In this document: in pieces, positions 6,887 through 64,000 of the stretch
Layout of the letters: each line of letters begins with the position of its first letter
Position numbering within the stretch: position 1 is the stretch's first letter
Source: an uncultured Candidatus Saccharibacteria bacterium
GTDB taxonomy: Bacteria > Patescibacteriota > Minisyncoccia > Phycocordibacterales > WO2-35-19
Direction: 5' to 3'
NCBI GenBank assembly: GCA_964534305.1
Contig: CAZHPR010000001.1
Location: 26,944-90,943, forward strand
Length of the DNA stretch: 64,000 nucleotides
Translations under genes and position numbers: made by a program
Notes under the pieces: generated by a model
Told to the model about the DNA's origin: nothing
Database searches by the model: none
What the model saw: the letters and a program-made list of their open reading frames with translations, nothing else

Positions 6887-6918
6887 TAGTTTTTGTGTTT
6901 ATTGTAGACTTTGAAGCC

Positions 6919-7986
6919 ATGAGTCAATATAAACTAAAAACAAATAAGCTGCCAAAAGGAGAAATTGAGATAGAGGGAGAGATAGACTCTTCCCTACTTC
7001 TTGAAGCACGAAAAAAAGCATTAAAAAAGATTGGCCAAGATGTTGAGGTTGACGGATTTCGCAAAGGAAATGTGCCAGAGAAAATAATCATAGATAAATT
7101 TGGAGAATCTTTCATCATGGAAGAGGCGGCTGAAATACTTCTTCAAGAACACTACCCTCTTATAGTTAAAGAGATGGACCTAGACACCATAGGTAGACCA
7201 AATATTTCTATAACAAAATTGGCCTTGGGCAATCCGCTCCAGTTCAAAATAAAAACAGCAACCCTACCAGAAATAAAACTCCCTGATTACAAAAAGATTG
7301 CGAAAGAAAAAAACTCAAAAAAAATTGAGATCCCGGAAGTTACCGAAAAGGAAATTGATGAGATACTACTACAGATAAGAAAAAATAAAGCTCATTTTGA
7401 CTGGCATAAATCAAATCCAAAAGAAGATGGCCACAACCATCCTGATTTTGAAAAAGAAGAAAATCTTCCAGTCTTAGATGACCAGCTTGCAAAAGAAGCG
7501 GGAAACTTTAAGGATCTTGCCGAGATGAAAGAAAAGATAAAAGAGAATATAAAAAAAGACAAAGAACTTAGGGAAGTAGAAAAAAGAAGGGGTGAAATAA
7601 TCGACGCCCTTGTAAAAGAAACTGATTTTGAGGTACCAGACATTTTGGTAGAGGCGGAAGTTTCAAAATATATGGCACAAATGCAAGACGATATAGAGAG
7701 AGCTGGGGGCAAGTTTAGCGAGTATCTATCACACATAAAGAAAACTGAAGATGATCTGAGGAAGGAGTGGCGAGAGCCGGCTGAAAATAAAGCAAAGGTA
7801 CAGCTTATATTCAACAAAATTGCCGAGACAGAAAAGTTGGAACCAAACAAAGAAATCCTAGAAAATGAAGTAAAACACTTGCTAGAACATTACCCAAATT
7901 CTAGCGAAGAAAACGCTCGTATCTACGTTTCTACTATTCTCCTCAACAGCGAAGTCCTCAAACTCCTAGAGAACCAAAAGGCTTAA
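6919..7986 (+). CDS. tig: Trigger factor with ribosome-binding N domain and C domain but no recognisable PPIase domain
   Basis: N-terminal GFRKGNVP signature and a tig-clpP neighbourhood. No FKBP-like segment is seen. Start is probably MSQYKL at 6919 rather than the ORF-track start at 6895. Confidence 0.75.
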   Translation: MSQYKLKTNKLPKGEIEIEGEIDSSLLLEARKKALKKIGQDVEVDGFRKGNVPEKIIIDKFGESFIMEEAAEILLQEHYPLIVKEMDLDTIGRPNISITKLALGNPLQFKIKTATLPEIKLPDYKKIAKEKNSKKIEIPEVTEKEIDEILLQIRKNKAHFDWHKSNPKEDGHNHPDFEKEENLPVLDDQLAKEAGNFKDLAEMKEKIKENIKKDKELREVEKRRGEIIDALVKETDFEVPDILVEAEVSKYMAQMQDDIERAGGKFSEYLSHIKKTEDDLRKEWREPAENKAKVQLIFNKIAETEKLEPNKEILENEVKHLLEHYPNSSEENARIYVSTILLNSEVLKLLENQKA

Positions 7987-8679
7987 GGCGGCGATGGCGG
8001 CGGTTTCGGCGCGCAAAACAAGAGAACCCAGAGAATACACTTGGGCTTCTTTTTGTTTAAATAGATCTAACTCCTTTGGAGACCAGCCACCTTCAGGCCC
8101 GATGAATAAGTTTACAGACTCCAGATTATAGTTTTCAGTTCCCCTCTTCTTTGCAAGGAGAGGGGTTAGGGGTGAGGTAGAAGAAGGCTCCAATATAATC
8201 ACCCCTCCTTCTGTTTCCTCAATACTATCTGCTAACTGCTTAATGCTATTTATCTCCGGTACATCAGCTCTGCCGCACTGCTCGCTTGCCTCTATCGCAA
8301 TCCTCTTTGCTCTTTCAAGGTTAAAACCTTTTTTCTCACTTCTTTCTGAAAGGATTGGAATTATTTTTGAGACCCCAAGTTCTGTCGCCTTTTCTATCAC
8401 CAGCTCAAGGTTATCTTTTTTTATCAAAGAAATATAAAGACTAATTTTATTTTTAGGGACCACTCCCCCTCTCTCTTCTAAGAGTCTCACCCAAGCTTCT
8501 CGATTGTTTATTGTTTCTATAACGTATAGGTATTCGCTCCCCCTACCGTCAAAGAGGACAACCTCGCTCCCAACATTGTATCTAAAGACACTTCTCCACT
8601 GGTGCATCAAATCTCTATCCTGCAACAGGGTCCTATCGCTACCTAAATCCTTTTTTATATAAAACCTATGTAGTCGCAT
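7966..8679 (-). CDS. rsmE: 16S rRNA (uracil1498-N3)-methyltransferase RsmE carrying a 15-aa in-frame repeat-element insertion
   Basis: RsmE family motifs (…LFIGPEGGWSPKE…, N-terminal PUA-like domain). The STSPLTPLLAKKRGT segment is encoded by the palindromic element at 8139-8183. Confidence 0.8.
   Translation of the reverse strand: MRLHRFYIKKDLGSDRTLLQDRDLMHQWRSVFRYNVGSEVVLFDGRGSEYLYVIETINNREAWVRLLEERGGVVPKNKISLYISLIKKDNLELVIEKATELGVSKIIPILSERSEKKGFNLERAKRIAIEASEQCGRADVPEINSIKQLADSIEETEGGVIILEPSSTSPLTPLLAKKRGTENYNLESVNLFIGPEGGWSPKELDLFKQKEAQVYSLGSLVLRAETAAIAALSLLVL
8139..8183. repeat. G+C-rich palindromic element (solo copy) inserted in frame within rsmE
   Basis: GTTCCCCTCTTCTTTGCAAGGAGAGGGGTTAGGGGTGAGGTAGAA. 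The same 45-bp unit is also at 11931-11975. Confidence 0.85.
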
Positions 8680-11739: not shown

Positions 11740-11779
11740 CCCTCCCCTGATCAAGGGGAGGGTTGGGTGGGGTTATTCC
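11740..11779. repeat. Palindromic element variant (solo copy) directly after the stop codon of the MBL ribonuclease gene
   Basis: CCCTCCCCTGATCAAGGGGAGGGTTGGGTGGGGTTATTCC. The hairpin loop resembles the 17609 element and the tail resembles the main family. Confidence 0.7.
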
Positions 11780-11788
11780 AAGATGGGG

Positions 11789-13237
11789 TTAATCCAAAAA
11801 GTATTCCTTACCGGGTTCGGGATAAATTGCTTCTATATCTAAGTACTCACGGATGCGTTGAGAGAGAAAGAGCGAAGAACGCGGTTCACCCATGATAGTA
11901 AAAACTTTTTTGAGAGAGTGTTGTTGTGTGGTTCCCCTCTCCTTTGCAAGGAGAGGGGTTAGGGGTGAGGTAGAACCTTCCGAAGCCTCCTCGACAAACT
12001 CCACCAAATTATCAGAATCTTTGTGTGAAGAGTAACCCTTTATTGTCTCTATCTTTGCTCTTACTTTTATTTTTTGACCATTTATCTTGACCTCACTCTT
12101 GCCGTCCTCAAGAGCCCGGCCCAAGCTACCCAGAGTTTGATACCCAACAAGGAGGAGGGTGTTTTTGTGATCGTCCAAAATATCAGCTTCATGAGCCAAA
12201 ACCCTCCCCCCTTCAGACATACCAGAGCCAGCAATTATTATCTTCGGGCCACCTTTTTTTATAACAGACTTACTTTCTTCAAAACCGTCTACAATATTGA
12301 GGCCAGGAAAATCAAATATGTTATCGCCCCTTTTTATCTCTTCTTGTACTTCCTTTTTAAAATCAGTTGCGTATTTTTTATAGATGTTTGTTACTTTTAT
12401 AGCCAGTGGAGAATCAAGATAGACAGGGACTTTCTCTATCTCCCCATCTTCTATCATGTTGTTTAGTTCGTACAGCATTACCTGAGTCCTTTCTATAGAA
12501 AAAGCTGGTATAACAATGGTTCCACCCCTCTTTATCCCCTCTTGGATCACCCCCTTAAACCTCTCTCTTCTTTCTTCTTTACTCTCATGATTTCTATCTC
12601 CATAAACACTCTCCATAACAATATAATTTGCTCCTTCTGGAATTTCTGTATCCGGTAATAATGGCGAAGGAGAATTGCCCAAATCTCCTGTAAAGGAAAT
12701 CTTGCGTACTTCATTCAAATCGAAAGATCCATAAGAAATATTTATTATGGCAGAACCGAGTATATGGCCAGCATTTTGCATATCTATCTTTATATCTTTA
12801 CCTAGGTTTATTGTTTGATTGTAATCGCAACCCTCCCACAAAGACATCGTTTTTTCTATATCCTTCTCTTCATAGAGATTTTTGTCGCGATGCCTAGACC
12901 TAAAAACTTTAAGAGCATCTAGGAGCATTGGCCTTGCAAGCTCCAGGGTTTCCTTTGTTGAAATTATTTTTCCACCAAAGCCCTCTCTCACAAGCTTTGG
13001 TATTTTGCCAATATGATCCATATGAGCATGAGTCACCAGTAGAAAATCAAAAGAAGACGGGTCGTATTTGAATGGCTCAAAGTTTTTTAGTTCATCATTG
13101 AAACTACCCTGGAGCAGACCACAATCAACCATAATCTTTGTACCAGCATAAAGAAATTCTATGTTTGCACCGGTTGCGGTCCCTACCCCACCCCAAAAAA
13201 TTAGTTTTGCATTTTTATCTTTATTTTGTTGACTCAT
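11789..13237 (-). CDS. MBL-fold beta-CASP ribonuclease (RNase J / CPSF-like) carrying a 15-aa in-frame repeat-element insertion
   Basis: HxHxDH motif (VTHAHMDHIG) and a beta-CASP-like central region. The C-terminal segment STSPLTPLLAKERGT is encoded by the element at 11931-11975. Confidence 0.7.
   Translation of the reverse strand: MSQQNKDKNAKLIFWGGVGTATGANIEFLYAGTKIMVDCGLLQGSFNDELKNFEPFKYDPSSFDFLLVTHAHMDHIGKIPKLVREGFGGKIISTKETLELARPMLLDALKVFRSRHRDKNLYEEKDIEKTMSLWEGCDYNQTINLGKDIKIDMQNAGHILGSAIINISYGSFDLNEVRKISFTGDLGNSPSPLLPDTEIPEGANYIVMESVYGDRNHESKEERRERFKGVIQEGIKRGGTIVIPAFSIERTQVMLYELNNMIEDGEIEKVPVYLDSPLAIKVTNIYKKYATDFKKEVQEEIKRGDNIFDFPGLNIVDGFEESKSVIKKGGPKIIIAGSGMSEGGRVLAHEADILDDHKNTLLLVGYQTLGSLGRALEDGKSEVKINGQKIKVRAKIETIKGYSSHKDSDNLVEFVEEASEGSTSPLTPLLAKERGTTQQHSLKKVFTIMGEPRSSLFLSQRIREYLDIEAIYPEPGKEYFLD
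11931..11975. repeat. G+C-rich palindromic element (solo copy) inserted in frame within the MBL ribonuclease gene
   Basis: GTTCCCCTCTCCTTTGCAAGGAGAGGGGTTAGGGGTGAGGTAGAA. Confidence 0.85.
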
Positions 13238-17150: not shown

Positions 17151-17199
17151 TGGGCTAAATATAGCATTATTATTTTATTTATAAACCCCCTCCGGCTTA

Positions 17200-17635
17200 A
17201 AGCCACCTCCCCCTTAATCAGGGGGAGGAAACACCCCACCCATCACAAATTATTTCTTATTTTTAAAATTACTTCCTCCACCCCATTATCAATCTCTTTA
17301 TTCCAAAACCTTAAAGTCTTATACCCCAAGTCTTCCATAAACAACTGTCTTACCCTGTCATACTCTTTATTTTGATTGTGAATTTCTCCGTCAATTTCGA
17401 TAACTAATTTTTTCTCTGGACAAAAGAAATCAACTACATAACCTCCAATACTATGCTGTCTCCTAAATTTCACCCCCAACTGACTACGTCTCAAATACCA
17501 CCAAATTTTATTCTCTTGCGGAGTTGGGTTTCTTCTAAGTTCCTTTCTATGCTCCCGGAGGCTGTATAGATTATGCAACTTCTTCATAACGATAAGTAGC
17601 AGTTTTTTCTTTCCCCTGATTAAGGGGAAAGTGGC
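17200..17635. mobile_element. Small cassette of one DUF559 endonuclease gene flanked by about 30-bp inverted repeats, inserted between adk and map
   Basis: Left arm AAGCCACCTCCCCCTTAATCAGGGGGAGGAAA (17200-17231). Right arm TTTCTTTCCCCTGATTAAGGGGAAAGTGGCC (17605-17635) is its imperfect reverse complement. Confidence 0.55.
17243..17587 (-). CDS. DUF559 (Vsr-like, PD-(D/E)xK) endonuclease-domain protein
   Basis: …ENKIWWYLRRSQLGVKFRRQHSIGGYVVDFFCPEKKLVIEIDG…LRFWN… The ORF-track start at 17638 reads through the right inverted repeat. The Met at 17587 is the more likely start. Confidence 0.8.
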   Translation of the reverse strand: MKKLHNLYSLREHRKELRRNPTPQENKIWWYLRRSQLGVKFRRQHSIGGYVVDFFCPEKKLVIEIDGEIHNQNKEYDRVRQLFMEDLGYKTLRFWNKEIDNGVEEVILKIRNNL

Positions 17636-17652
17636 CAAAGGCCGATAGGGGT

Positions 17653-29755: not shown

Positions 29756-29830
29756 ACCGCCCTTAGCTCAGTTGGTTAGAGCACAGAGCTTATACCTCTG
29801 GGGTCCTAGGTTCGAATCCTAGAGGGCGGA
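29756..29830 (+). tRNA. tRNA with anticodon UAU (tRNA-Ile2-type, AUA-reading)
   Basis: Manual fold: acceptor CCGCCCT/AGGGCGG, D-arm GCTC…GAGC, anticodon stem CAGAG/CTCTG with loop CTTATAC, T-arm CTAGG-TTCGAAT-CCTAG. No encoded CCA. Confidence 0.7.
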
Positions 29831-29870
29831 CAAGCGTTAGAAAAAACTCAAATACTTGTGACGACAAACA

Positions 29871-32955: not shown

Positions 32956-33373
32956 GGGGATGATCGGCCTAGACAATAAGAATATCTTTATAAATGCCAA
33001 AGAGAGCTGTGGTGACTCTTAAATCCGCCATAAATGATAACTGCAAACAAGGTTGTCACAAAAGCTAAGTCCGTTGCTTCTCCATACTTTGGGGTCAACG
33101 ATTTCGCTTTCGCTTACGTTAGAGCTTAATTAAGTTTCTTTCCTAAGCGACGCTATCCTTCTTATGTCTCATACGGAAGATCATGGTGTAATAAATTGAG
33201 GCTCTGGAAAATAGTTCTCCCCTATTTTCCGAAATGTTGGGAGATCGAAACTTTAGAATTTCGTCTGTTTGTATCTAGAGTTTTTAAATGGGCCTAGCCC
33301 AAAAAGCAGTCTATCTCTGGTAGAAATTTATAAAATACCTTATTGCATGCGCGTTCGATTCGCGCCATCTCCA
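32956..33373 (+). ncRNA. ssrA: tmRNA (SsrA)
   Basis: 5' GGGGAUGAUCGG… pairs with 3' …CAUCUCC-A. tRNA-like T-arm GCGCGTTCGATTCGCGC. Lies immediately downstream of smpB. Candidate tag frame ends in …FAFAYVRA-TAA. Confidence 0.7.
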
Positions 33374-33446
33374 CAAAATTAACGAGCGAACAAGGTGAGC
33401 GACTATAATTTTGTAGGACCCTGAGTTTATCGAAGGGTTTTTAATT

Positions 33447-43090: not shown

Positions 43091-43140
43091 CCTCCCCTCT
43101 CCTCTTGCAAGGAGAGGGGTTGGGGGTGAGGTAGATTATT
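43091..43140. repeat. Palindromic element (solo copy) abutting or overlapping the fusA stop codon
   Basis: CCTCCCCTCTCCTCTTGCAAGGAGAGGGGTTGGGGGTGAGGTAGATTATT. Confidence 0.8.
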
Positions 43141-45888: not shown

Positions 45889-45904
45889 GTTTTGTTTTTG
45901 TATT

Positions 45905-45950
45905 TTCCTCCCCTCTCTTAGATTAAGAGAGGGTTAGGGTGAGTTATTTT
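45905..45950. repeat. Palindromic element (solo copy) filling the rpsL-rpsG intergenic spacer
   Basis: CCTCCCCTCTCTTAGATTAAGAGAGGGTTAGGGTGAGTTATTTTTA. Confidence 0.8.
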
Positions 45951-46360
45951 TATGACTTGGGCTTCTTTACTCCATAACTAGATCTTGAGGTTCTTCTCTT
46001 ATCTACTCCAGCTGCATCCAGTCTTCCTCTTACAATTGTGTATCTAACTCCAATATCCTTCACTCTACCACCTCTTAGAGTCACAACTGAGTGCTCTTGC
46101 AAATTGTGCCCAATACCTGGGATATAAGCTGTAACCTCCATACCGTTTGTAAGACGAACCCTGGCTATCTTTCTAATAGCAGAGTTAGGCTTTCTTGGAG
46201 TCTTTGTTGTTACCTTTGTGCAAACCCCCTTCTTAAAAGGAGATGGGTAATATACTGGCTTATTTTTGAGCGTATTAAAACCACGAGCCAAAGCAACAGC
46301 CTTTGACTTCGTCTTTACTATCTTTCTTTTCTTTCTTACTAATTGATTTATTGTAGCCAC
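45948..46360 (-). CDS. rpsL: 30S ribosomal protein S12
   Basis: …[11 protein letters not shown]… S12 signature. Confidence 0.9.
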
Positions 46361-47320: not shown

Positions 47321-47383
47321 TAGCTAGCATCTAGCATTAAGTATCTAAGTAAAAGTCCTAAACCAAGGTTATTTTTTGTTTGT

Positions 47384-47428
47384 CCCCCTCTCTTAATTTA
47401 AGAGAGGGGTTAGGGGTGAGTTATTTTT
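47384..47428. repeat. Palindromic element (solo copy) that encodes the last 5 codons and the stop codon of the ComEC MBL-domain gene
   Basis: CCCCCTCTCTTAATTTAAGAGAGGGGTTAGGGGTGAGTTATTTTT. Confidence 0.85.
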
Positions 47429-48300
47429 AGATTTACCCCATCACTCTTGAAAATAATGCTACCAGAAGTATCAGTGCGGAGAGTTTTTATATTTAATTTC
47501 TCCAAGAGGGCTAGTACTTCTTGATGCGGATGACCGTAGCGATTGTCCTTACCACTAGAGACAACTGCATACTCCGGATTTACCGCTCTTACAAAATTAT
47601 CAGAACTAGAAGTTCTTGAGCCGTGATGTCCAAGTTTTAATACATCACTTTCTAGTCCCAAGGAGAGTCCTTGGGATCTATATTTGTTTACCAAATAATT
47701 TTCTATTGCACTCGGCGAATCTCCGGTAAGCAAAAATTCATTCTCGCCATAAACAAGACGAGCAACGATTGAGGCAGTATTTGTCTCCCACCCACTTACA
47801 TCTTTTTCTGGAAACAAGATTTCCAAAAATGCTCCCCCACCCAAATTGATTTGCATGCCAGCTCTTGCAAGAATCTTTTTTATTTTTCCTCCACTTTCTA
47901 ACTTGCCAACTTGCGTCTTTAAACTTTCATATATATCTGTATCCGACTCTACCCCGGGTTCCAAAAAAAGATCTACCTCATAATTCTCTAAAATATCAAC
48001 GAGTCCCCCCACATGATCCGCATCTGGATGAGTTGCAACAACAACATCAAGAGACCGATCATAAAACTTCATCACCTTAGAAATTTCTCGAAGTACCCCC
48101 CTCCCCACCCCACCATCAACAAGAACTTGGTTGCCTGAGGGAGACTCTATAAAAATGGCATCCCCTTGCCCAACGTCCAAAAAGGCAACCGTGAGCAGTC
48201 CTCTATTATTTCTGAGATCCAAAAAAACAAAGAGAGAAATTAGGATAGCGAGAATAAACAGGATGCTCACTAAGAGTCTAATTTTTAATTTTGAACTCAT
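47410..48300 (-). CDS. Stand-alone ComEC-type metallo-beta-lactamase domain protein
   Basis: N-terminal TM anchor followed by …VAFLDVGQGDAIFIE… and …ATHPDADHVGG… (the MBL part of ComEC). Confidence 0.7.
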   Translation of the reverse strand: MSSKLKIRLLVSILFILAILISLFVFLDLRNNRGLLTVAFLDVGQGDAIFIESPSGNQVLVDGGVGRGVLREISKVMKFYDRSLDVVVATHPDADHVGGLVDILENYEVDLFLEPGVESDTDIYESLKTQVGKLESGGKIKKILARAGMQINLGGGAFLEILFPEKDVSGWETNTASIVARLVYGENEFLLTGDSPSAIENYLVNKYRSQGLSLGLESDVLKLGHHGSRTSSSDNFVRAVNPEYAVVSSGKDNRYGHPHQEVLALLEKLNIKTLRTDTSGSIIFKSDGVNLKITHP

Positions 48301-55647: not shown

Positions 55648-55998
55648 TTATAATTTTAATTCTGTACTTCTTCTGATATTTTCTAAAACTTTATCCAAGT
55701 TGTTTAAAATATCATTATTCCAAAATCTTATAGTTCTTATATCTTTATCTTTTAAAAAGTCCTCGCGTTCTTGGTCGTATTCTACAGCACTTTTATGTTG
55801 TTCACCATCTAGTTCTATCGCAAGTCTTTTTTCTGCACAAAAGAAATCTAGTATATACGGGCCTGCACTATATTGTCTTAAAAATTTTAAATTGTTTACT
55901 TGTCTGTTCCTAATTTTTGACCAAAGGAGTCTTTCTGCTTCAGTTTGATTTGACCTGAGTTCACGTCGTCGCTCTAGTTGGTTTTGGTCGTTATACAT
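55648..55998 (-). CDS. DUF559 (Vsr-like) endonuclease-domain protein
   Basis: …EAERLLWSKIRNRQVNNLKFLRQYSAGPYILDFFCAEKRLAIELDGEQH…IRFWNN… Start set at the ATG at 55998; the ORF-track TTG start reads into the repeat. Confidence 0.85.
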   Translation of the reverse strand: MYNDQNQLERRRELRSNQTEAERLLWSKIRNRQVNNLKFLRQYSAGPYILDFFCAEKRLAIELDGEQHKSAVEYDQEREDFLKDKDIRTIRFWNNDILNNLDKVLENIRRSTELKL

Positions 55999-56171
55999 AT
56001 TTGTATGATTCCGGTTTCCCCCTTGTTGTAAGGGGTGAGAATGCGCAGTATTCGCAAGACTTTTTGAGATATTTTTATGCAATTAAAATATCCAAAAAGT
56101 GTACAGTCCTTGTAAGGGATTAGGGGGGTTATTCCCCCTATCTTGTTGTAAGAGAGGGGTTAGGGGGTGAG

Positions 56172-56939
56172 TTATTTTACATCCACACTTTTCAAAATTT
56201 CTGGAAACTCTTCTTTTTTTAGTGAAGCATGACCAACAAGAAATCCTTCTACATTACCGTAGTCTATTATGGCTCTAGCATTCGGGGCCTCAACAGCAGC
56301 TCCATAGAGGATACGCACAGAAGAAGCAATATCTTTACCAAACAATTCACCCAAAGATTTTCTGATAAAAAGGACTGTCTCGTGTATATCAGTTGGACTC
56401 ATTGCTTCTCTATAAGATTTTCCTATCGTCCAGACCGGCTCATAGGCGATAATAAGTCCCAACATATATTTCTTTTGTAAGCCGGAGATAGAATTTTTAA
56501 GTTGTTCTTTTAAGAACTCGAGATGACTTCCTTCTCTATCTCTAACACTTTCCCCGATACACAGGATTGGAGTAAGACCAGCTTCAAACACTGACTCTAA
56601 TTTTTTGTTTATTATTTTATTATCCTCACCCATTGCCCTCCTCTCAGAGTGCCCGACCAAAACAAACCTAACTCCCAAATCTTTGAGCATTTGATTGCTC
56701 ACTTCCCCAGTAAAGGCGCCCTTTTCTTCAAAATACGAGTTTTGTGCTGTAATAAATAGATTTTTAGGTCTGCTTATTTTTGACAACAGCCCAAGATACA
56801 CAAAAGGAGGAGCGACCAAAACCTCTGTATTTTTGAGTACTGAGGCGGTCTTTTTTGTAAAATTAAATATACTTTTTGCTTCTTCAAGAGAACTCGGGTT
56901 CATCTTCCAATTTGCTATAACTATATTTTTCTTTTTCAT
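56172..56939 (-). CDS. tpiA: Triosephosphate isomerase
   Basis: …IANWKMN… and …VGHSERR… motifs. Its stop codon lies inside the right inverted repeat. Confidence 0.9.
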   Translation of the reverse strand: MKKKNIVIANWKMNPSSLEEAKSIFNFTKKTASVLKNTEVLVAPPFVYLGLLSKISRPKNLFITAQNSYFEEKGAFTGEVSNQMLKDLGVRFVLVGHSERRAMGEDNKIINKKLESVFEAGLTPILCIGESVRDREGSHLEFLKEQLKNSISGLQKKYMLGLIIAYEPVWTIGKSYREAMSPTDIHETVLFIRKSLGELFGKDIASSVRILYGAAVEAPNARAIIDYGNVEGFLVGHASLKKEEFPEILKSVDVK

Positions 56940-62117: not shown

Positions 62118-62235
62118 AAATAGAAAATTAATTTTCTATTTAATTATATCAGTATAAAAAAATTTTTTTATAGAATATGTAAATAACTCACCCCCTGCCC
62201 CCTCTCTTACAACAAGAGAGGGGGTAAGAAAAAAA

Positions 62236-62614: not shown

Positions 62615-62968
62615 TTATAGTTTATTTTTTAAAGAATTTTCTATTATAACTTTCAAAACTCCTTCAATATCTTTTACTACTTCATTATTCCAAAATCTTA
62701 TAGTTCTTATATCTTTATCTTTTAAAAAGTCCTCGCGTTCTTGGTCGTATTCTACAGCACTTTTATGTTGTTCACCATCTAGTTCTATCGCAAGTCTTTT
62801 TTCTGCACAAAAGAAATCTAGTATATACGGGCCTGCACTATATTGTCTTAAAAATTTTAAATTGTTTACTTGTCTGTTCCTAATTTTTGACCAAAGGAGT
62901 CTTTCTGCTTCAGTTTGATTTGACCTGAGTTCACGTCGTCGCTCTAGTTGGTTTTGGTCGTTATACAT
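62615..62968 (-). CDS. DUF559 (Vsr-like) endonuclease-domain protein, second near-identical copy
   Basis: Identical to the 55648 copy except for the C-terminal 20-25 residues. Confidence 0.85.
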   Translation of the reverse strand: MYNDQNQLERRRELRSNQTEAERLLWSKIRNRQVNNLKFLRQYSAGPYILDFFCAEKRLAIELDGEQHKSAVEYDQEREDFLKDKDIRTIRFWNNEVVKDIEGVLKVIIENSLKNKL

Positions 62969-63141
62969 ATTTGTATGATTCCGGTTTCCCCCTTGTTGTA
63001 AGGGGTGAGAATGCGCAGTATTCGCAAGACTTTTTGAGATATTTTTATGCAATTAAAATATCCAAAAAGTGTACAGTCCTTGTAAGGGATTAGGGGGGTT
63101 ATTCCCCCTATCTTGTTGTAAGAGAGGGGTTAGGGGGTGAG

Positions 63142-64000
63142 TTATTCCGAAACCACCCTGAGCACTTCCTCAATTGTTGTCAATCCTTGAGCAGCCTTGA
63201 AGATACCATCTTCCATCATGGTGAGCATCCCCTCTTTTTTTGCTTGCAGTTCTATATCTTCAGTTGTTCCGCCTTTGATAATTATATCCTTGATCGCACT
63301 TGAAACGTTGAGCACCTCATAGATACCAACTCTACCCTTAAAACCCTCCTCACCCACATCTTTGTTTGGTTTGTAAAAAGGTACGTTTTTCCATTCGTCT
63401 TTATTTCCTATTATTTTCTCTTCTTTCAAAGCCTTGAGTACTCTGTCCATATCAATAACCTTTGCAATGGAATCAACCTCGGCTTGAGTAAGGTAGTGTT
63501 TCTCACCTCGATCTACCAACTTTCTTACCAATCTCTGACCGATAACAACATCAAGAGTTGAGATCATGAGAAATGGCTCTACCTTCATATCTATAAGTCT
63601 AGGCACAGCACCAGCCGCTGAGTTGGTGTGTAAAGTAGAGAGAACCAGGTGTCCAGTAAGAGAAGCGTTGATAGCAAGAGAGGCGGTCTCATTGTCTCTA
63701 ATCTCTCCAACCATTATGATATCCGGGTCCTGTCTCACAAGAGTACGGAGTCCGGCTGCAAAGGTAAGACCTATTTCAGGCTTAACCTGAGTCTGATTAA
63801 CTCTTTTCATCTGGTATTCAATCGGATCTTCAATAGTAGAAATATTTACGTCTGGAACATTTAAGATATCAAGCATTGTATAGAGGGTGGTGGACTTTCC
63901 GCTTCCAGTAGGACCAGTTGTAAGTACCATACCGGTTGTGTGCTGCAAAGCCTTGTGCAAAACATCAAGACCTTCTCCATGAAAACCAAGGGCTTCTAGA
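63142..64000 (-). CDS. pilB: Type IV pilus assembly ATPase PilB/GspE, C-terminal ATPase domain; the gene continues beyond the window end
   Basis: Walker A GPTGSGKSTT, Asp box, Walker B and His box of GspE-family ATPases. Its stop codon lies inside the right inverted repeat of the cassette. Confidence 0.8.
   Translation of the reverse strand, partial: LEALGFHGEGLDVLHKALQHTTGMVLTTGPTGSGKSTTLYTMLDILNVPDVNISTIEDPIEYQMKRVNQTQVKPEIGLTFAAGLRTLVRQDPDIIMVGEIRDNETASLAINASLTGHLVLSTLHTNSAAGAVPRLIDMKVEPFLMISTLDVVIGQRLVRKLVDRGEKHYLTQAEVDSIAKVIDMDRVLKALKEEKIIGNKDEWKNVPFYKPNKDVGEEGFKGRVGIYEVLNVSSAIKDIIIKGGTTEDIELQAKKEGMLTMMEDGIFKAAQGLTTIEEVLRVVSE

Follow-up and report, generated by a model that had tools for sequence, protein, structure and literature searches.

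An in-frame repeat in rsmE of a Patescibacteria genome with BoxC-type architecture, and related motifs flanking DUF559 genes

Introduction

The repeats most similar to the element described here are the Escherichia coli 'TM_ECO' motifs of Holder et al. 2015 (PMC4666352), earlier named BoxC and PIT; the lineage of names runs from Bachellier in the 1990s through Hoyne and Maher (2000) to the 2015 study. The consensus is CCCTCNCCC-N3-6-GGGNGAGGG-N3-GGGNGAGGG, and copies with the linker TTA are designated 'type A'. Strain K-12 carries 23 copies, which are 'always intergenic'. A TM_ECO single-stranded oligonucleotide formed a triplex in vitro, but tests on duplex DNA and in vivo gave no sign of one. 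The motifs were associated with local indels and genomic instability, and showed no tie to transposons, phages or plasmids (all PMC4666352). As far as an earlier study is cited in the same paper, PIT elements in E. coli have no promoter or terminator activity.

Other short repeats share single properties with the element. REP sequences and REPINs are dispersed, short, structured solo repeats that are accompanied by RAYT (TnpA_REP), a small nuclease gene between inverted copies. Rickettsia palindromic elements (RPEs) are about 100-150 bp long, are known only from Rickettsia and relatives and are not known to have a three-arm mirror architecture. BoxC-type repeats have, to our knowledge, no accepted origin, function or mobilising factor, and their origin has been unknown since the 1990s.

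Nuclease genes can themselves be selfish. Vsr-like homing endonucleases of the I-Bth0305I family are found in introns, inteins and 'fractured genes' (PMC3239194, PMC2677866). DUF559 proteins, which are Vsr-like PD-(D/E)xK endonucleases, were among the genes enriched for flanking inverted repeats in Milman et al. 2023. Here we describe a repeat inside the rsmE gene of a Patescibacteria genome of 39% G+C. The whole stretch of DNA that was analysed, 64,000 nucleotides, is called the window.

Results

A 45-nt repeat unit lies in frame within rsmE

An original prediction, made from the sequence of the window alone, had placed a 45-bp palindromic element in frame inside rsmE at 8139-8183. The 237-aa ORF at this site was identified as RsmE by Pfam (Methyltrans_RNA, 4e-45; PUA_4, 3e-8). 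It contains an in-frame 45-nt repeat unit that encodes residues 166-180 and is composed as follows.

7966-8679, minus strand: rsmE, 16S rRNA U1498 methyltransferase, SPOUT family (Pfam, homologues, alignment, AlphaFold model, solved relatives)
8138-8182, G-rich strand on plus: solo three-arm repeat in rsmE, in frame, minus-strand reading STSPLTPLLAKKRGT
8138-8140: lead GTT
8141-8149: pyrimidine arm CCCCTCTTC
8150-8156: loop TTTGCAA (7 nt)
8157-8165: purine arm GGAGAGGGG
8166-8168: linker TTA
8169-8177: mirror third arm GGGGTGAGG
8178-8182: tail TAGAA

The bounds were set by comparison with a second in-frame copy, which lies in another gene and is 98% identical over 45 nt.

11931-11975, plus strand: second solo copy, in frame in a beta-CASP/metallo-beta-lactamase RNase gene (11789-13237, minus strand), read STSPLTPLLAKERGT

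Thus the prediction of a repeated element that keeps the reading frame was borne out, and its position had to be moved by one base. Searching the window for the 25-mer with up to three mismatches returned two copies, compared with none in 100 shuffles. The sense-strand RNA hairpin of the rsmE copy, which has one T/G mismatch, was scored at -13.8 kcal/mol (Watson-Crick folding only), and that of the beta-CASP copy at -23.5 kcal/mol. A tryptic RsmE peptide across the insert would span ...SSTSPLTPLLAK.

The same element, with both junctions as in the window, was present in an independent JGI metagenome contig (L001). The rsmE element is therefore real and not an assembly artefact, and the in-frame repeat is confirmed as genuine.

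The tail of the palindrome is a third arm

The predicted description as a palindrome plus tail was accurate as to the sequence, which reads CCCCTCTTCTTTGCAAGGAGAGGGG at 8141-8165 followed by TTAGGGGTGAGGTAGAA at 8166-8182. It was incomplete as to the architecture. The element runs from a pyrimidine arm over a loop to a purine arm, and after a TTA linker a G-rich arm repeats the purine arm in mirror order, so that the apparent tail is a third arm and the unit is no plain palindrome. Aligned antiparallel, GGAGAGGGG and GGGGTGAGG gave G·G, G·G, A·A, G·G and T·A, followed by four further G·G. In the rsmE copy all of the purine-motif triads (9/9) are of allowed types (G·G, A·A, T·A). Arms of other subtypes differ in sequence and keep the mirror relation (AAGAGAGGGG/GGGGTGAGTT, AGGGGAGG/GGTGGGGT and AAGGGGGA/AGGGGGTT). 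A structure-rule scanner whose only requirements are a purine arm preceded by its hairpin partner and followed by a mirror arm detected 12 motifs in the window, whereas 20 shuffles gave none.

Because the third arm mirrors the purine arm, the rsmE element was placed in the BoxC/PIT/triplex-motif class. Judged by its sequence, it has the intrastrand-triplex architecture of E. coli BoxC/PIT/'TM'; only the hairpin was scored, and the triplex is inferred. The window family and BoxC/PIT/TM_ECO both consist of a 9-nt pyrimidine arm, a short loop, a 9-nt purine arm, a 3-nt TTA linker and a 9-nt mirror G-rich arm, and have the core GAGAGGG-TTA-GGGTGAG in common. Both are multi-copy, with conserved stems, variable loops, occasional inverted pairs and an association with local indels. 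In contrast to TM_ECO, the window arms GGAGAGGGG/GGGGTGAGG extend by one more triad to either side of the linker, and the loop, at 7 nt, exceeds the 3-6 nt of TM_ECO. The literal E. coli consensus had no match in the window, even when the two G-rich arms alone were searched with 2 mismatches. Since the architecture is that of TM_ECO but the literal consensus is unmatched, the window motifs are, at the level of sequence, a sister variant and not members of the strict E. coli family. Neither is intergenic location a property of the window family, as the rsmE and beta-CASP copies lie within ORFs, whereas the K-12 copies are 'always intergenic'. The host, a Patescibacteria genome of low G+C content, also differs from E. 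coli.

A G-quadruplex was rejected as the underlying structure: although the G-runs would permit one, the bases covary by the mirror (triplex) rule. A known RNA family was rejected likewise, since Rfam at gathering thresholds matched only two tRNAs and the tmRNA in the window.

With the three-arm rule met, a chance palindrome in ordinary loop sequence, or a chimera of the assembly, can be set aside. Nothing more than the variable length of the RsmE loop speaks for such an origin. It is refuted by the 98% identical 45-mer in another gene, with no matches in shuffles, by the recurrence of element and junctions in the independent L001 contig, and by the three-arm rule itself, and we give it practically no weight.

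The element is an insertion in a variable loop of RsmE

The search for RsmE homologues found 7203 proteins, and the closest came from Patescibacteria (the records name Zambryskibacteria and Paceibacterota). Among 30 aligned homologues, strong variation in length was confined to the segment from '...vFDPSG' to 'lFIGPEGG'. The distance from QCGR to GPEGG had its mode at 48-49 aa (49/120 homologues, ~40%), compared with 56 in the RsmE of the window. Since about 40% of the 120 relatives have a loop that is 7-8 residues shorter, the segment was interpreted as an insertion. This was compared at the DNA level in six syntenic contigs (L001-L006) with the gene order beta-CASP, RNase Y, ClpP, RsmE, trigger factor. 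The rsmE element was absent from the close relatives L002 and L006. In L005, a related element was found at the same downstream junction, and this rsmE keeps the full-length loop in addition to a 15-aa insert. In the window lineage, the 15-aa insert is present and about seven adjoining loop residues have been lost as well, which leaves a net gain of 7-8 aa.

The 15 residues that had been predicted as an addition to the protein are thus present as an insert, but they do not amount to a net gain of 15 over the most frequent loop length. Element-free and shorter forms at both the protein and the DNA level support an in-frame insertion, and among the RsmE orthologues compared no repeat-free relative was found to have unrelated DNA coding for a comparable stretch of 15 aa. 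The location in a variable segment was also predicted correctly; the insert lies between the strand that ends in ...ILEP and the strand that leads to the GPEGG block. In the AlphaFold model of RsmE (mean pLDDT 85) these are strands 159-163 and 188-193, and the confidence drops to pLDDT 58-59 over residues 171-190. The segment of the insert is therefore a low-confidence stretch in the model, and the same segment varies among solved RsmE structures in the alignment.

The RsmE proteins of the window and of L001 are 70% identical. The element is conserved between the two, and the insertion is therefore old. At the nucleotide level, the element matches at 41/44 positions, whereas the rsmE DNA on either side of it is 64% identical (binomial P = 9e-6). 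This sequence comparison suggests that the element is either constrained at the nucleotide level or homogenised against other copies.

The RsmE loop of related genomes carries different motifs. Type A is found in the window and in L001, a type B-like motif in L005 and a type C motif in L004, and L003 has an unrelated palindrome; the cases that bear a motif were confirmed by the scanner. Opposite-strand versions were recognised at the protein level (PSPLPLGEGAEGEV, PPNPLPQGEGAGGGV) in the homologues P0010, P0113, P0071 and P0054, and P0084 has two motifs. As far as can be read from these sequences, the RsmE loop is a hot spot for BoxC-type subtypes in both orientations. The beta-CASP site parallels it: the window has type A there, L005 a diverged motif and L006 none.

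Solo copies are found mostly at the 3' ends of genes

Besides the two type A copies, which are 3.8 kb apart, the window contains four further solo motifs.

11741-11773, plus strand: other subtype, CCTCCCCT-GATCA-AGGGGAGG-GTTG-GGTGGGGT, just 3' of the beta-CASP stop codon
43092-43136, plus strand: adjoining the fusA stop codon (43136-43138)
45897-45952, plus strand: in the rpsL-rpsG spacer
47382-47426, plus strand: over the 3' end of a metallo-beta-lactamase gene (47410-48300, minus strand)

Most solo copies are located directly at gene 3' ends, and in the last of these motifs the TTA linker is the stop codon of the gene. All six solo copies (6/6) have the same orientation relative to their genes.

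This shared orientation and the location at gene 3' ends, together with the higher conservation of the element than of the flanking coding DNA between the window and L001, would fit a function in cis. The hairpin or DNA structure could pause transcription or translation, stabilise the transcript or separate the folding of the two RsmE domains, or the peptide itself could be functional. We consider this improbable. Many close relatives do without the element, or carry unrelated elements or the opposite orientation in the same loop, and the stem of the rsmE copy is weakened compared with that of the beta-CASP copy (-13.8 vs -23.5 kcal/mol). Hairpins on the mRNA strand are followed by A-rich rather than U-rich sequence and PIT elements in E. 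coli, so far as the cited account goes, lack terminator and promoter activity; a terminator was rejected on the same grounds.

Motifs flank DUF559 genes in inverted pairs

The remaining six of the 12 window motifs form inverted pairs around the three DUF559 genes (3/3), with the third arms pointing outward. These genes were found by tblastn with in-frame cassette domains and confirmed by Pfam (PF04480, E about 1e-33).

55648-56082, minus strand: DUF559 (Vsr-like PD-(D/E)xK endonuclease) gene (tblastn, Pfam)
56133-56176, plus strand: motif beside this gene, overlapping the tpiA stop codon
55003-55050, minus strand: far motif of this gene, beyond an unassigned 186-aa ORF
62615-63052, minus strand: second DUF559 gene (tblastn, Pfam)
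63102-63146, plus strand: motif beside the second gene, overlapping the stop of a T2SSE ATPase gene
62185-62234, minus strand: far motif of the second gene, beyond a glyoxalase-like ORF
17243-17638, minus strand: third DUF559 gene (tblastn, Pfam)
17185-17227 (minus) and 17609-17651 (plus): divergent long-linker motifs flanking the third gene

A TTA just beyond the third arm is the stop codon of tpiA, and likewise of the T2SSE ATPase gene. In two of the three window copies, unrelated ORFs separate the DUF559 gene from its far motif. The tracts 62682-63146 and 55712-56176 are 100% identical over 465 nt; one end coincides with the outer boundary of the third arm and the other falls inside the DUF559 ORF. 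None of the DUF559 genes within the window is flanked by type A, the subtype of the rsmE copy.

For an unbiased set, five DUF559 loci were chosen by protein similarity alone, including one of a Deltaproteobacterium at 60% G+C. Each of these independent loci (5/5) had motifs on either side of the gene, no more than about 100 nt away, and the mirror rule was obeyed although the arms differed in sequence between loci. The opposite, inward arrangement was seen at loci L146 and L149. Conversely, 8 of the 120 motif-found loci listed have a DUF559 gene within 300 nt, as read from their coordinates. In E. coli K-12, BoxC copy no. 9 lies about 170 nt downstream of ycjD, a DUF559 gene, and a partial hairpin overlaps the ycjD stop codon. 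The ycjD region is present in 3,377 of 5,426 E. coli genomes. Sampled E. coli entries with ycjD had more BoxC-type matches than those without, a crude comparison that is confounded by phylogeny. Flanking of DUF559 has not been reported for TM_ECO. The motifs thus flank DUF559 genes in a regular inverted geometry, including beside ycjD, which is new and goes beyond the findings of Holder et al.

In four cases, a motif lies 20-30 residues upstream of an in-frame DUF559 domain: two in LeuRS, one in chorismate synthase and one in MetH. The LeuRS cassettes (L025, L108) read motif-DUF559-motif in frame; those in MetH and chorismate synthase (AroC) are also in frame, with the motif seen on the upstream side. 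The L025 cassette occupies the site of a solo hairpin peptide in L108, and both proteins have further solo motif peptides. The comparison of the two LeuRS proteins fits a relation between cassette and solo copy. The closest solved structure to the window DUF559 protein is 3HRL, an endonuclease-like protein. The residues DF...E-x-DG..H are conserved in the window protein aligned with 3HRL and in the four in-frame cassette domains that were inspected.

Several described types of element were excluded with these data. A MITE was rejected, as there is no target-site duplication and no terminal repeat pair and the solo copy is a single hairpin with one tail; inspection by eye of the sequences flanking the rsmE, beta-CASP and fusA copies gave neither direct repeats nor a common flanking target sequence. 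An element borne by an intein or intron was rejected because 45 nt are too short for a Hint domain or a self-splicing RNA and Rfam gave no support. In the longer cassettes DUF559 was the sole Pfam domain found, without a Hint domain. Recombination between the two hairpins of a cassette would leave tails on both sides and was rejected as the source of the solo copy, since the rsmE copy is one-tailed. Two-tailed hairpins are present in some cyanobacterial and Chloroflexota loci.

The repeats could also have spread without a dedicated enzyme. A non-B structure (hairpin or triplex) would stall replication, template switching or gene conversion would copy the repeats, and the adjacency to DUF559 would reflect shared permissive spots or use of the motif as a landing site by DUF559. 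The tie of the motifs to local indels and instability (Holder et al., PMC4666352) agrees with such a process, as do the deletions beside the element and the subtype replacement at one site in the RsmE loop, the type A copies that are 98% identical at a distance of 3.8 kb, which fits gene conversion, and the arrangements around DUF559, which are not uniform. However, simple fold-back copying cannot make a mirror repeat, the two-sided flanking at 5/5 and 3/3 loci, plus ycjD, is hard to obtain by co-accumulation, and one of the duplicates stops exactly at the motif terminus. Enzyme-free spread is judged unlikely but remains a serious rival, and a stronger candidate than a function in cis.

Near-identical units occur across phyla

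The pattern GAGAGGGGTTRGGGGTGAG was used to scan one genome per species (596 Gb), for which we estimated a chance expectation of ~9 matches. At least 120 genome stretches matched. Among the matches listed were Chloroflexota, Bacteroidota, Planctomycetota, Cyanobacteria, Acidobacteriota, Verrucomicrobiota and Patescibacteria, as well as Alpha-, Beta- and Gammaproteobacteria. By sequence, the units in these listed matches are near-identical across many phyla, a spread that likewise goes beyond the account of Holder et al. The pyrimidine arm, which is outside the search pattern, was found upstream in 110 of the 132 copies among the matches listed. One base outside the core, these 132 listed copies had G-G in 122, A-T or A-A in 7 and another combination in 3; two bases outside, the counts were G-G 74, A-T 26 and other 32. 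Thus, in the 132 copies among the matches listed, the bases flanking the core covary as the triplex rule predicts.

Many of the cross-phylum copies among the matches listed are located within long open frames. Host genes confirmed by Pfam in low-G+C genomes were Dus, LigA (NAD-dependent DNA ligase), CN_hydrolase, ResB/CcsA and an FAD oxidase. Motifs in frame inside housekeeping genes of gene-dense, low-G+C genomes (Patescibacteria, Bacteroidota) are a new observation. A metagenome scan with a subtype-specific 24-mer returned 14 loci, mostly of a different tandem repeat; one of them (L131) has a cassette in MetH.

Discussion

Our preferred explanation, which we hold to be probable rather than certain, is that the 45 bp in rsmE are a solo BoxC-type repeat in a permissive loop, a non-autonomous derivative of DUF559-associated units; the mechanism of mobilisation is inferred. 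In an ancestor of the window lineage, a copy would have entered this permissive surface loop or been copied into it, and it is translated as 15 loop residues rich in Pro, Leu and Lys. The repeat can survive inside genes because its G/C-rich arms contain almost no stop codons. The arms, with few stops in either orientation, are predicted to encode linkers rich in Pro, Gly, Ser and Leu. Selection in a gene-dense genome would leave only those copies that lie in tolerant loops or at the extreme 3' ends of genes, and the persistence of such copies alone would explain where the motifs are found in the window.

One possibility is that small selfish units exist whose core is a DUF559 (Vsr-like) endonuclease, with the repeats as their cis elements. 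This is inferred, as is the proposal that DUF559 nicks or cuts the DNA within or close to the motif, or else at target sites; no such activity has been shown. Copy-repair of the nicks or breaks could then spread or homogenise the repeats, again by inference. By analogy, solo copies would relate to the DUF559 units as REP sequences do to RAYT. Hence DUF559 units may be what spreads BoxC-type repeats, but no mobilisation step was observed. Against mobilisation by DUF559, there is no target-site duplication, the arrangements are mixed, unrelated ORFs intervene in two of the window copies, type A flanks none of the DUF559 genes of the window, Holder et al. saw no tie to mobile elements, and the 465-nt tract does not define the end of the mobile unit that lies away from the motif. 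High conservation of the element could also arise by gene conversion among copies without a dedicated enzyme.

A wider reading is more tentative, and we would not put it at an even chance. Here, BoxC/PIT repeats in general would be the cis-acting ends and solo derivatives of cross-phylum DUF559 selfish elements that insert in frame into essential genes without splicing. The solo forms, of 35-45 nt, would do the same. The stop-free repeats, coding for Pro and Gly, would act as linkers and give rise to hypervariable loops such as that of RsmE.

The described systems agree with the window family in part. As in REP/REPIN and RAYT, there are dispersed short structured solo repeats and a small nuclease gene between inverted copies. 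RAYT is an HUH Y1 transposase, whereas the flanked protein here is the Vsr-like PD-(D/E)xK protein DUF559, and no HUH Y1 (IS200/IS605-like) transposase was present as the repeat-flanked gene in the window or in the fetched loci. A mirror third arm is found in the window repeat and not in REP, and REPs are extragenic. With Rickettsia palindromic elements the window repeat shares in-frame insertion into conserved protein genes, added surface peptides and the lack of a known transposase. It differs in its length of 45 bp, its Patescibacteria host, as assigned by the RsmE homologues, and its architecture. The two are not known to be related in sequence. The parallel to RPEs that the original prediction had drawn is fair as an analogy, in that both are in-frame repeats in conserved genes. 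On the whole, its reading as a repeat inserted in a variable loop is supported, and what it missed is the cross-phylum family, the BoxC class and the tie to DUF559. Compared with the I-Bth0305I family, a Vsr-fold nuclease again appears as a selfish gene, and the LeuRS, MetH and AroC cassettes are embedded in essential genes. Unlike in these homing systems, there is no intron or intein splicing apparatus and the cassette appears to be translated through in the host protein. Flanks made of triplex-type repeats, and an element in rsmE without any nuclease, also set the present case apart from them.

In the literature, no paper was found that ties DUF559 to BoxC-type repeats (GGGTGAGGG) or describes in-frame copies. 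Most subscription journals were not covered, so that a prior description cannot be excluded. In summary, a known repeat class is found in an undescribed context, in frame and in Patescibacteria, and the DUF559 geometry is the most interesting lead. In-frame motifs make particular protein loops hypervariable, and inserts of this kind can lead to errors when Patescibacteria proteins are aligned or annotated or have their structure predicted. If the link to the nuclease is functional, it would provide a testable candidate for the spreader of BoxC-type repeats and would define a selfish element that lives inside proteins without splicing.

In-frame DUF559 cassettes in host genes

Whole, stop-free cassettes of the Vsr-like PD-(D/E)xK endonuclease domain DUF559 were found in frame inside host genes at four loci, which come from Bacteroidota and a metagenome contig (L-numbers denote loci from other genomes or metagenomes).

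L025:6925-7407, cassette in LeuRS
L108:3231-3632, cassette in LeuRS, at a site other than that in L025
L033:2-346, cassette in chorismate synthase
L131:3855-4308, cassette in MetH

None of the four cassettes carried intein or intron features. The LeuRS cassettes of L025 and L108 bear three-arm repeats on both sides. For the chorismate synthase cassette, which is cut off by the end of the locus, a repeat was seen upstream only; the same holds for the MetH cassette, where the repeat is present as two tandem copies. In the LeuRS comparison, a solo hairpin peptide of L108 lies at the exact site of the L025 cassette.

Duplication, tandem arrays and the E. coli ycjD region

The window contains a duplicated tract of 465 nt (55712-56176 and 62682-63146; 100% identity), comprising a repeat motif and most of a DUF559 ORF. 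The identical stretch runs precisely to the third arm's outer end and no further; the TTA at that point provides the stop codon of both tpiA and a T2SSE ATPase gene. Tandem repeats were detected at three loci, among them arrays of the three-arm motif with periods of 39-42 nt.

L042:2841-2943
L087:3548-3700, enclosed by an open frame of 762 aa
L129:941-1344

A tandem repeat of 129 nt with GAGAGGGGTTAGGGGTGAGGTAGA at its end adjoins a DUF559 gene. In E. coli K-12 (NC_000913.3, 1351195-1351760; L141), BoxC/TM copy no. 9 lies about 170 nt downstream of the DUF559 gene ycjD, and a partial hairpin overlies the ycjD stop codon. A survey of complete E. coli genomes (n = 5,426) showed the ycjD region in 3,377. 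Among the sampled rows only, genomes without it had fewer BoxC-type matches.

Solo motifs and the RsmE loop

All six solo motifs of the window have their G-rich strand on the plus strand.

8143-8178, +
11741-11773, +
11936-11971, +
43096-43132, +
45911-45944, +
47386-47421, +

The genes that enclose or adjoin them are on the minus strand in all six cases, and the mRNA therefore always has the C-rich complement. Given a sample of six, such uniform orientation is only suggestive.

Other features of the window include two RNA genes.

29757-29831, tRNA-Ile, anticodon TAT
32956-33374, tmRNA with an unusually long tag of 28 residues, ANKVVTKAKSVASPYFGVNDFAFAYVRA

The genes for trigger factor (6895-7986, plus strand) and rsmE (7966-8679, minus strand) are convergent, with a 3'-end overlap of 21 nt (7966-7986).

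In L002-L005, four contigs from different samples, about 70 nt (rsmE codons about 140-165) directly upstream of the variable loop are nearly 100% identical, and the N-terminal halves of the proteins differ. At the sequence level, this combination indicates putative mosaic recombination around the loop. The same loop is occupied in relatives by peptides derived from A+T-richer palindromes (L003:570-650; proteins P0009, P0030, P0044, P0063 and P0066), such as ELKAKSLE...SSKLK and NHESRIMNH...SLHNS. These peptides suggest that, besides the three-arm type, further small repeat families may also live in frame.
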